From: Escherichia coli
Lineage (GTDB): Bacteria; Pseudomonadota; Gammaproteobacteria; Enterobacterales; Enterobacteriaceae
Direction: 5' to 3' (one strand)
Assembly: GCF_044324785.1 (NCBI RefSeq)
Contig: NZ_CP172127.1
Length of the DNA: 64,000 bases
The notes beneath the pieces were generated by a model. It ran no database searches and was not told the origin of the DNA. It saw nothing but the letters and a program-made list of their open reading frames with translations. The position numbers and the translations under genes are program-made. Positions 52,380 to 55,691 of this stretch are shown here, piece after piece (position 1 is the first letter of the stretch; each line of letters begins with the position of its first letter).

Positions 52380-53639
52380 TTATGAGCGTTTCATCATCTC
52401 GAAGAAATCGTCATTGGTCTTGGTCATTGCCAGTTTATTAATGAGGAATTCCATTGCATCGATTTCGCCCATCGGGTGAATGATTTTGCGCAGGATCCAC
52501 ATTTTCTGCAGTTCTTCCTGAGTAGTGAGCAGCTCTTCTTTACGGGTACCGGAACGGTTGTAGTCGATTGCCGGGAAGACGCGTTTTTCAGCGATCTTAC
52601 GAGAGAGGTGCAGTTCCATGTTGCCTGTACCTTTAAACTCTTCGTAGATAACTTCGTCCATCTTGGAACCGGTATCGATAAGCGCGGTAGCGATGATGGT
52701 CAGGCTGCCGCCCTCTTCCACGTTACGCGCCGCACCGAAGAAGCGTTTCGGACGATGCAGGGCGTTGGCATCCACACCACCGGTCAGCACTTTACCTGAC
52801 GCCGGAACAACGGTGTTGTAAGCGCGCGCCAGACGAGTGATGGAGTCGAGCAGAATGATAACGTCTTTCTTGTGCTCAACCAGGCGTTTCGCCTTCTCGA
52901 TCACCATTTCCGCAACCTGAACGTGGCGAGATGCGGGTTCGTCAAAGGTAGAAGCAACAACTTCACCTTTTACCAGTCGCTGCATCTCGGTTACTTCTTC
53001 TGGACGTTCGTCGATCAGCAGAACCATCAGCACACAATCCGGGTGGTTGTAAGCAATGCTCTGAGCAATGTTCTGCAGCAGCATGGTTTTACCGGCTTTC
53101 GGCGGTGCCACAATCAGACCACGCTGACCACGACCGATAGGTGATGCCAGATCCAGTACGCGAGCGGTTAAATCTTCAGTAGAACCGTTACCACGTTCCA
53201 TACGCAGACGAGAGTTTGCGTGCAGCGGGGTTAAGTTCTCAAAGAGGATTTTGTTGCGGGCGTTTTCAGGTTTGTCGAAGTTAACTTCGTTAACTTTCAG
53301 CAGCGCAAAATAGCGTTCACCTTCTTTCGGCGGGCGAATCTTACCAGAGATGGTATCACCAGTGCGGAGGTTGAAACGGCGGATTTGGCTAGGGGAAACG
53401 TAGATGTCATCAGGACCGGCGAGGTAGGAGCTGTCTGCGGAACGGAGGAAACCAAATCCATCCTGCAATATCTCCAGTACGCCATCACCAAAGATATCTT
53501 CGCCACTCTTTGCGTGCTGCTTCAGGATGGCAAAAATAATGTCCTGCTTACGCATACGAGCCAGGTTTTCCAGCCCCATATTTTCGCCGAGAGTGATCAG
53601 CTCAGAAACCGGCGTATTCTTTAATTCGGTAAGATTCAT
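52380..53639 (-). CDS. rho: Transcription termination factor Rho
   Basis: The ORF extends to 53711, but the start is placed at [57 protein letters not shown]... (419 aa). Confidence 0.95.
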
Positions 53640-53723
53640 AGTGGTGTGAGTTCTTAAACTTGGGGTAAATCTCGAACTTAATGTTGTGAATGGTATGGCA
53701 GGATCATCCATGCCTGTTTACGG

Positions 53724-53825
53724 TCATCGACTCATGTCTTTTCGCTGTCTGGTCACAGGAGAGTACGCAGAACTGAAACGACAAGACGGATTGAGTGACG
53801 AGCCAGAAATCTGTTCACTTCGCAT
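53724..53825 (-). CDS. rhoL: rho operon leader peptide
   Basis: Minus strand encodes MRSEQISGSSLNPSCRFSSAYSPVTRQRKDMSR (33 aa) in the rho 5' leader. Confidence 0.8.
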   Translation of the reverse strand: MRSEQISGSSLNPSCRFSSAYSPVTRQRKDMSR

Positions 53826-53965
53826 TTAAGATAAAACGGGAAGCGTTGGAAATTACAAGATTCAAACTTAATAAGGTATGTTTAATACGAAGTCAACACT
53901 AAGTTAGCATGACTCACGCCGGGCGTCCAGTTTTTAGCGACGGGGCACCCGAACATGAAATTCCC

Positions 53966-54295
53966 TTACGCCAGGTTAGCGTCGAGGAACTCTTTCAACT
54001 GACCTTTAGACAGTGCGCCCACTTTGGTTGCCGCCACTTCACCGTTTTTGAACAGCAGCAGAGTCGGGATACCACGGATACCATATTTCGGCGCAGTGCC
54101 AGGGTTTTGATCGATGTTCAGTTTTGCAACGGTCAGTTTGCCCTGATATTCGTCAGCGATTTCATCCAGAATCGGGGCGATCATTTTGCACGGACCGCAC
54201 CACTCTGCCCAGAAATCGACGAGGATCGCCCCGTCCGCTTTGAGTACATCCGTGTCAAAACTGTCGTCAGTCAGGTGAATAATTTTATCGCTCAT
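53966..54295 (-). CDS. trxA: Thioredoxin 1
   Basis: Start placed at [50 protein letters not shown]... (109 aa, WCGPC active site); the ORF extends upstream to 54400. Confidence 0.95.
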
Positions 54296-54425
54296 ATATA
54301 ACTCCACAGGAATAAGCCTGGCGTGTTGGTTTCGTTGTTGGTGTAACATTAACCAACTTAAGGTTGACTTTATTTCACCGGATACGCTTTCGTAAAGCAA
54401 TAGTAAGCTGATATTCTACCACACT

Positions 54426-55691
54426 ATGAGCAAAACACATTTAACAGAACAGAAGTTTTCCGACTTCGCCCTGCATCCGAAGGTTGTAGAAGCCCTTGAA
54501 AAAAAAGGGTTTCATAACTGTACGCCCATTCAGGCACTGGCCCTTCCGCTGACGCTGGCGGGTCGTGACGTAGCCGGGCAGGCGCAAACCGGTACCGGGA
54601 AAACGATGGCGTTTCTTACGTCAACGTTTCATTATCTTCTCTCTCATCCCGCGATTGCCGATCGCAAGGTGAATCAACCGCGTGCCTTAATTATGGCACC
54701 GACGCGTGAACTTGCCGTGCAGATCCACGCCGACGCAGAGCCACTTGCGCAAGCTACCGGCCTGAAGCTGGGTCTGGCTTACGGTGGTGATGGCTACGAC
54801 AAACAGCTGAAAGTGCTGGAAAGCGGCGTTGACATTCTGATTGGCACCACGGGGCGTTTAATTGACTACGCCAAGCAGAACCACATTAACCTCGGTGCCA
54901 TTCAGGTAGTGGTACTGGACGAAGCCGATCGCATGTACGATCTGGGCTTTATTAAAGATATCCGCTGGCTGTTCCGCCGTATGCCGCCTGCAAACCAGCG
55001 CCTCAACATGCTGTTCTCCGCCACGCTTTCGTACCGGGTACGTGAACTGGCGTTCGAGCAGATGAACAATGCCGAATATATTGAAGTGGAACCGGAACAG
55101 AAAACGGGCCACCGTATTAAAGAAGAGCTTTTCTACCCTTCTAACGAAGAAAAAATGCGTTTGCTGCAAACGCTGATCGAAGAAGAGTGGCCAGACAGAG
55201 CGATTATTTTCGCCAACACCAAACACCGTTGTGAAGAGATCTGGGGCCACCTGGCGGCAGATGGTCATCGTGTCGGTTTGTTGACAGGCGATGTCGCGCA
55301 GAAAAAACGTCTGCGTATTCTTGATGAATTTACCCGTGGGGATCTGGATATTCTGGTTGCCACCGACGTTGCCGCGCGTGGCCTGCATATCCCGGCTGTG
55401 ACGCACGTCTTTAACTACGATTTACCCGATGACTGTGAAGATTACGTTCACCGTATTGGTCGTACAGGTCGTGCAGGCGCAAGTGGTCATTCCATCAGCC
55501 TGGCATGTGAAGAGTATGCATTGAATTTGCCTGCTATTGAGACCTATATTGGTCACTCAATTCCGGTAAGCAAATACAATCCGGACGCATTGATGACCGA
55601 TCTGCCAAAACCGCTGCGCCTCACGCGCCCGCGCACAGGCAATGGTCCGCGTCGTACTGGCGCTCCGCGTAATCGTCGTCGTTCAGGTTAA
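54426..55691 (+). CDS. rhlB: DEAD-box ATP-dependent RNA helicase RhlB
   Basis: 421-aa ORF with Q-motif, GTGKT, DEAD and SAT motifs. Confidence 0.93.

Follow-up and report, generated by a model that had tools for sequence, protein, structure and literature searches.

The upstream ORFs tnaC and mgtL are equipped with working initiation signals, and their sensing codons or peptides are conserved. The leaders of tnaC-tnaA, mgtL-mgtA, and toiL-topAI (in the last of which the upstream ORF likewise has functional initiation signals and conserved sensing codons or a conserved peptide; PMC12121999) share a simple layout with the leader of rho: a short ORF lies over a C-rich stretch, upstream of a zone of Rho-dependent termination. 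Unlike these three, the ORF in the rho leader, rhoL, lacks a Shine-Dalgarno sequence, has a base-paired AUG, and is not conserved. Leaders of the trpL, hisL, or pheL type are recognized by a ribosome-binding site, a terminator hairpin with a U-run, and an ORF that is conserved in related genera; the rhoL leader shows none of the three.

The rho gene is itself autoregulated: Rho attenuates transcription in its own leader (PMC6582626; bioRxiv 10.64898/2026.05.02.722398). The autogenous Rho-dependent attenuation for which later papers cite Barik 1985, Matsumoto 1986, and Kung 1984 concerns the same locus and the same leader as treated here, and the published 3' ends and Rho-dependent zone map to positions 53734, 53589, and 53552 of the window, i.e. 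of the whole stretch of DNA analysed (64,000 nucleotides of the Escherichia coli contig NZ_CP172127.1, from a non-K-12 strain). For Salmonella, the sRNA SraL (RyjA) is reported to pair with the rho '5' UTR' and to counteract Rho-dependent termination there (Silva 2019, as cited in later papers); past the promoter elements, E. coli shares ~90% of the leader sequence with Salmonella enterica arizonae, in which ACG stands at the place of the E. coli rhoL ATG. When E. coli RyjA was matched to the leader by simple duplex energies, the best local duplexes reached -22.5 and -20.6 kcal/mol, as against a mean of -22.6 for shuffled sRNAs; they are thus no better than the shuffled controls, and no SraL pairing site is placed.

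On the minus strand of the window, trxA (54295-53966), rhoL (53825-53724), and rho (53639-52380) follow each other in this order, with rhlB divergent from them on the plus strand. The rhoL ORF, as given by the ORF listing, has an ATG start, 33 codons, and a TGA stop, and encodes the peptide MRSEQISGSSLNPSCRFSSAYSPVTRQRKDMSR; it begins 140 nt after the trxA stop (53966), and its start and end lie 186 and 84 nt upstream of the rho ATG (53639). The sequence-only reading had quoted this ORF and its peptide correctly, leaving only the strand unstated, and had named it rhoL of the rho 5' leader, an assignment which is borne out from several sides. The NCBIfam equivalog NF007433, 'rho operon leader peptide RhoL', covers it over positions 1-33 of 33 with 95.2 bits (E 1.5e-27; the curated whole-protein cut-off is 85 bits), and its place is the one expected of this family, between trxA and rho, on the rho strand, and upstream of rho. 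It coincides base for base in its coordinates with the annotated rhoL CDS of E. coli 042 and of MG1655 (b3782, 3966231..3966332), the comparison which the sequence-only reading had proposed, and an identical peptide stands in a public protein collection under 'rho operon leader peptide RhoL' and LPRH_ECOLI. Relative to MG1655, the window differs in rhoL by one synonymous AGG/AGA codon, leaving the protein unchanged. Given the coincidence with RefSeq and the NF007433 score, the earlier identification is correct, and the feature is the known rhoL of E. coli, same in gene, peptide, and place, and already annotated; its position and anatomy are direct observations in the window.

Within the species the locus is nearly uniform. 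The 401-nt trxA-rho region (query 53600-54000) is matched in 5425 of 5426 complete E. coli genomes, in 5379 of them at an identity of at least 99%, and among the matches listed the annotation reads rhoL, rho, and trxA, with rhoL annotated in each. A single complete genome has no match, though the region holds an essential gene, and a few genomes match it at two places, one such place being a plasmid. The length of the rhoL ORF is no greater than expected by chance: when the sequence is shuffled with its dinucleotides preserved, 19% of the shuffles made from the 222-nt leader and 37% of those made from the 326-nt intergenic region contain a closed ATG ORF of at least 33 codons.

A consensus scan for promoters and terminators over 53500-54450, on both strands, returned no promoter and no intrinsic-terminator-like site; promoter candidates were thus read by eye and judged by conservation. 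Candidate A (minus strand, 53868-53896) consists of TTGACT (53896-53891) and TATTAA (53873-53868), spaced by 17 nt; its predicted start near 53861 would yield a leader of ~222 nt, and its -10 element is not conserved outside Escherichia, Salmonella, and Citrobacter. Candidate B (minus strand, 53901-53929) consists of the -35-like TGGACG (53929-53924) and, after 17 nt, the extended -10 element TGcTAACTT (53909-53901); its predicted start near 53894 would yield a leader of ~255 nt, and in most Enterobacterales, as well as in Aeromonas, a match to TGNTAANNT lies towards the trxA end of the trxA-rho spacer. As a sequence motif, candidate B is far better conserved than candidate A. From either, the leader between the putative rho promoter and the rho start would be long, with a predicted 222 or 255 nt.

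Just after trxA, on the minus strand at 53897-53935, lies a highly conserved block, CTGGACGCCCGG...TGCTAACTTAG, within which CTGGACGCC is invariant in most Enterobacteriaceae; it overlaps the extended -10-like motif as well as published trxA-side RNA 3' ends (MG1655 3966142/3966145, window 53914/53911). The variable sequence upstream of this block is complementary to CGCCCG, suggesting a 3' stem-loop lacking a U-run.

The composition of the leader is skewed towards C (26% C, 17.6% G), and two stretches with C in excess of G stand out on the minus strand, both defined by composition only. The first (53742-53816, i.e. -177 to -103 relative to rho) lies inside rhoL, has a C/G ratio of ~1.6 and 13 YC dinucleotides per 60 nt, and includes a conserved 25-nt block at 53765-53789. 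The second (53592-53696, -57 to +47) runs from the rho-proximal part of the leader ~47 nt into rho, has a C/G ratio of 1.6-2.7, and includes a conserved 16-nt block at 53662-53677; further into rho, the ratio drops below 1. Both are C-rich, G-poor stretches of the kind that could act as Rho loading (rut) sites ahead of the termination points, and we regard them as candidate rut regions.

The Rho-dependence of termination and the positions of the RNA 3' ends come from the literature on MG1655, whose leader is nearly identical to that of the window (PMC12121999; PMC7815308 supplements); published MG1655 positions were placed on the window via the rhoL and rho coordinates. A Term-seq RNA 3' end falls inside rhoL, 95 nt upstream of the rho ATG (minus strand, 53734; MG1655 3966322), and a Rho-dependent termination zone early in rho (minus strand, 53552-53589) extends from a Term-seq 3' end at +50 (53589; MG1655 3966467; Rho score 7.07) to a bicyclomycin-sensitive peak at +87 (53552; MG1655 3966504; score 7.8, p 1.3e-215; all PMC7815308 supplements). 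Both C-rich stretches are thus followed downstream by a published 3' end or termination zone. In the rho R66S mutant, RNA polymerase occupancy in rho rises 12-fold relative to the rhoL region (PMC12121999). The further claim of the sequence-only reading, that this is the leader through which Rho is known to autoregulate by attenuation, thus agrees with a literature that documents attenuation in this leader (PMC6582626, PMC12121999, PMC7815308 supplements).

The name 'leader peptide' might, together with the hairpins in the leader, recall attenuation of the classical trp/his type, where stalling in the leader peptide chooses between an antiterminator and an intrinsic terminator hairpin. Nothing else speaks for such a mechanism, and its probability is close to nil: neither strand between trxA and rho holds an intrinsic-terminator-like site, termination is bicyclomycin- and Rho-dependent (PMC12121999; PMC7815308 supplements), and the rhoL ORF is not conserved.

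The E. coli leader folds at -50.3 kcal/mol (z = -1.94), with three hairpins that have comparative support. The 5' hairpin, CGCUUC.CGUUU-UAUCUU-AAAUG.CGAAGUG (minus strand, 53816-53845; found by folding and comparison), is predicted in all 31 species folded, with a loop of variable length and compensatory changes in the stem; its 3' arm pairs the AUG of rhoL (53825-53823). The long central hairpin (minus strand, 53721-53805) reaches from codon 7 of rhoL to just past its stop, with a C/U-rich 5' arm and a purine-rich 3' arm; across its 22 pairs, 95-97% of cells are paired, and 4 pairs are changed on both sides, a modest covariation. The small hairpin GGCAUGGAUGAUCCUGCC near -70 (minus strand, 53697-53714), within a conserved 33-nt block at 53686-53718, appears in the predicted folds of 55 of 58 distinct variants; in Proteus, Moellerella, Providencia, and Gullanella, its stem has changed in a clearly compensatory way. 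The 'structured leader' of the sequence-only reading is thus moderately supported, by the z-score of -1.9 (-1.27 when 60 nt of rho are added) and by these hairpins.

RNAalifold also proposed long-range helices between the proximal leader and nucleotides 2-16 and 27-33 of rho, by which the start codon of rho would be hidden. Within Enterobacteriaceae these helices do not vary; across 84 Enterobacterales sequences, the few variants that occur produce mismatches, and no change in them is compensated on both sides, so that they are not relied on here and were dropped as unsupported. A search of Rfam 15 gave no match over the rho leader at E-values up to 10. The only match above its gathering score in the region searched is TrxA_thermometer (RF02773), over the 5' UTR of trxA (minus strand, 54266-54365; 78.7 bits against a gathering score of 58, E 1.8e-13).

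In the main rival reading, rhoL could be a genuine regulatory upstream ORF of Escherichia, whose ribosomes would cover the first C-rich stretch, open the central hairpin, hinder the loading of Rho, and raise rho expression when translation is efficient, much as other upstream ORFs control Rho-dependent termination. The overlap of rhoL with the first C-rich stretch is in its favor, as is the annotation of rhoL in all E. coli genomes listed and in other Escherichia species. The comparison with relatives speaks against it. Species-representative genomes were scanned with a pattern tied to the N-terminus of rho, which gave 120 loci from Enterobacterales, Aeromonadales, and a few others; trxA is upstream of rho in nearly all of them, i.e. 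trxA-rho synteny is conserved, with spacers of 170-830 nt. Onto an alignment of 38 Enterobacteriaceae spacers from this set, the E. coli rhoL frame was projected. Its start is ATG in only 3 of the 38, namely E. coli, E. albertii, and one Enterobacter, in which a stop follows after three codons; apart from the ACG of Salmonella enterica arizonae, most other species have GCG. Of 36 species outside Escherichia, 35 thus lack the start; Salmonella is among them, although the same autoregulation and control by SraL have been described for its '5' UTR'. Length differences that are not a multiple of three shift the frame in 22 of the 38, stops interrupt it at codons 2-5 in many, and it is intact only in Escherichia in this sample.

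Nor does the frame carry a coding signature: divergence from E. coli at the first, second, and third codon positions is 0.211, 0.242, and 0.215 in the 38-species alignment, without an excess at the third. A conserved upstream ORF in any other frame was considered and rejected as well, since ATG ORFs of at least 25 codons, in any frame, occur in 17 of the 38 leaders where 17.8 are expected from shuffles. The RhoL protein cluster comprises E. coli, Shigella, E. albertii, E. fergusonii, and E. ruysiae; within Escherichia the C-terminus and the stop position vary, with 32-residue forms in a divergent E. coli strain and in E. albertii. ORFs of the Citrobacter freundii complex (39-47 residues) and of Klebsiella (30-33 residues), also named 'rho operon leader peptide', form separate clusters; they share the core frame of rhoL, start elsewhere, and are patchy in their distribution, sister Citrobacter species having lost the frame by a 1-nt insertion. 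That starts arose separately in one and the same frame is a point in favor of the upstream-ORF reading, and could reflect selection that has repeatedly favored such an ORF. The NF007433 scores in relatives all fall below 85 bits (E. albertii 84.4, Citrobacter 72.6, Kluyvera 62.8, Klebsiella 47.7). rhoL thus looks like a lineage-specific ORF, confined to Escherichia. The sequence-only reading had implied a role for the leader peptide and had tied it to conservation of the ORF in relatives; outside the genus Escherichia, start codons, frameshifts, and the chance-level frequency of ORFs all show that this conservation is missing, and the role is not supported.

The translation signals argue in the same direction. 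rhoL has no Shine-Dalgarno complementarity (anti-Shine-Dalgarno duplex +1.2 kcal/mol, compared with -5.9 for trxA and -1.4 for rho), and its AUG is base-paired in a conserved hairpin of -10 kcal/mol; the functional ribosome-binding site that characterizes ribosome-mediated attenuators is not found. A Ribo-RET data set from E. coli reports initiation reads at the rhoL start that increase by a factor of at least 3 in low Mg2+, in one replicate (bioRxiv 10.1101/2024.09.13.612970); rhoL may thus be translated under some conditions, a point for the ribosome-covered leader, and its translation is probably at most weak or conditional. Tetracycline causes no significant change of RNA polymerase occupancy in rho (PMC12121999), which also speaks against a leader governed by translation of rhoL. 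Taken with the unconserved start, the absent coding signature, and the variable C-terminus, this makes regulation by ribosomes on rhoL a rather unlikely explanation. In rho itself, which has almost no Shine-Dalgarno complementarity, a C/A-rich stretch upstream of the AUG (minus strand, 53640-53660) is conserved across Enterobacterales.

What is conserved in this leader is the RNA. The consensus frequency has its minimum, 0.48-0.62, around the rhoL ATG, rises to 0.87 over codons 9-34 of rhoL and to 0.92 in the interval separating the rhoL stop from the rho ATG, and reaches ~1.0 over nucleotides 1-30 of rho; conservation thus grows towards rho, and it extends into the coding sequence, where even synonymous sites are affected over the first 20 codons. 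Across 35 Enterobacteriaceae, synonymous codons of rho agree with those of E. coli at a frequency of 1.00 in codons 1-10 and of 0.95 in codons 11-20, compared with 0.70 in codons 31-300. In the rho CDS (minus strand, 52380-53639), the first ~60 nt (53580-53639) are almost invariant, and the near-invariance of their synonymous sites points to constraint at the RNA level. The 33-nt block at 53686-53718 and the 16-nt block at 53662-53677 stand at a constant distance from the rho start codon in most of the Enterobacterales families that were sampled; the 25-nt block at 53765-53789, which lies inside rhoL, is shared among Enterobacteriaceae only.

Several variations of the spacer were also observed. 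In Salmonella enterica arizonae, it measures 418 nt, as against 326 nt in E. coli, with an insertion of ~90 nt directly after the trxA stop. In the Pluralibacter group (four loci: L027, L043, L069, L100), CAAGTTTAAGAA is lost through a deletion of 12 nt shortly before the rho ATG; of the weak hairpin that lies closest to the rho start, this segment is the 3' half, and the flanking blocks are still conserved where it is deleted. In Aeromonas (for example in L009, L042, and L085), an 8-residue ORF, MRS(L/F)CFIT, recurs just after trxA, ~180 nt upstream of rho, which may merely reflect low divergence within the genus. In E. coli, an in-frame ATG at 53711 lengthens the rho ORF by 24 codons, to 443 residues (53640-53711, minus strand); in other genera, the frame from this ATG meets a stop after 9-10 codons, and the extension is thus not conserved.

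Phenotypes have been reported for a rhoL deletion, for transposon insertions in rhoL, and for a multicopy rhoL clone (PMC11188689; PMC9765468), all of which also alter or titrate the leader RNA. When rhoL is deleted, the signal of an RpoS-dependent reporter drops transiently, and selection in lake water enriches for insertions in rhoL (PMC11188689), as might be expected if RhoL were a small protein acting in trans, for example on the activity of RpoS. Such lesions disrupt the rho leader too, and should thus change the level of Rho, explaining their pleiotropy without a trans-acting peptide; moreover, Pfam offers no domain or model for the RhoL peptide, its C-terminus is variable, and it is absent outside a few genera. 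A trans-acting RhoL is, on this evidence, very improbable.

These considerations favor a leader of ~220-255 nt, with rhoL lying in it, that acts as a Rho-dependent attenuator and in which the functional unit is the leader RNA, not the RhoL peptide, a reading to which we assign a probability of roughly three in four. The long and largely untranslated leader RNA would expose C-rich, G-poor stretches for the loading of Rho, which would then halt RNA polymerase at the end of the leader (near -95) and in the first ~90 nt of rho (+50 to +90); more Rho would mean less full-length rho mRNA, closing a negative feedback. The conserved, presumably functional unit would comprise the hairpins, the C-rich stretches, and the start of the rho CDS, while the rhoL frame would probably be a by-product of conserved, stop-poor sequence, with a start codon poorly placed for initiation. 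A role of the RhoL peptide as a sensor is unlikely, and we infer that RhoL is dispensable.

The attenuating leader RNA and a translated rhoL could also be combined: rhoL may be a young upstream ORF, specific to Escherichia, inside a much older Rho-sensing leader RNA that is conserved across the order. Its conditional translation, to which the Ribo-RET reads in low Mg2+ would correspond, would then add a lineage-specific tuning to Rho autoregulation, in a frame that gained independent starts in Citrobacter and Klebsiella. We hold this layered scenario to be doubtful.

The rho leader is a textbook locus, already annotated, and its feedback loop matters, as Rho sets the level of factor-dependent termination genome-wide. 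The label 'leader peptide' calls to mind a mechanism like that of trp, for which the sequence offers no support, and it should be used with caution. The comparative data place the selective constraint on the RNA, i.e. on the hairpins, the C-rich stretches, and the first ~60 nt of rho; deletions of rhoL and transposon lesions in it should therefore be treated as lesions of the leader RNA in work on rho autoregulation.
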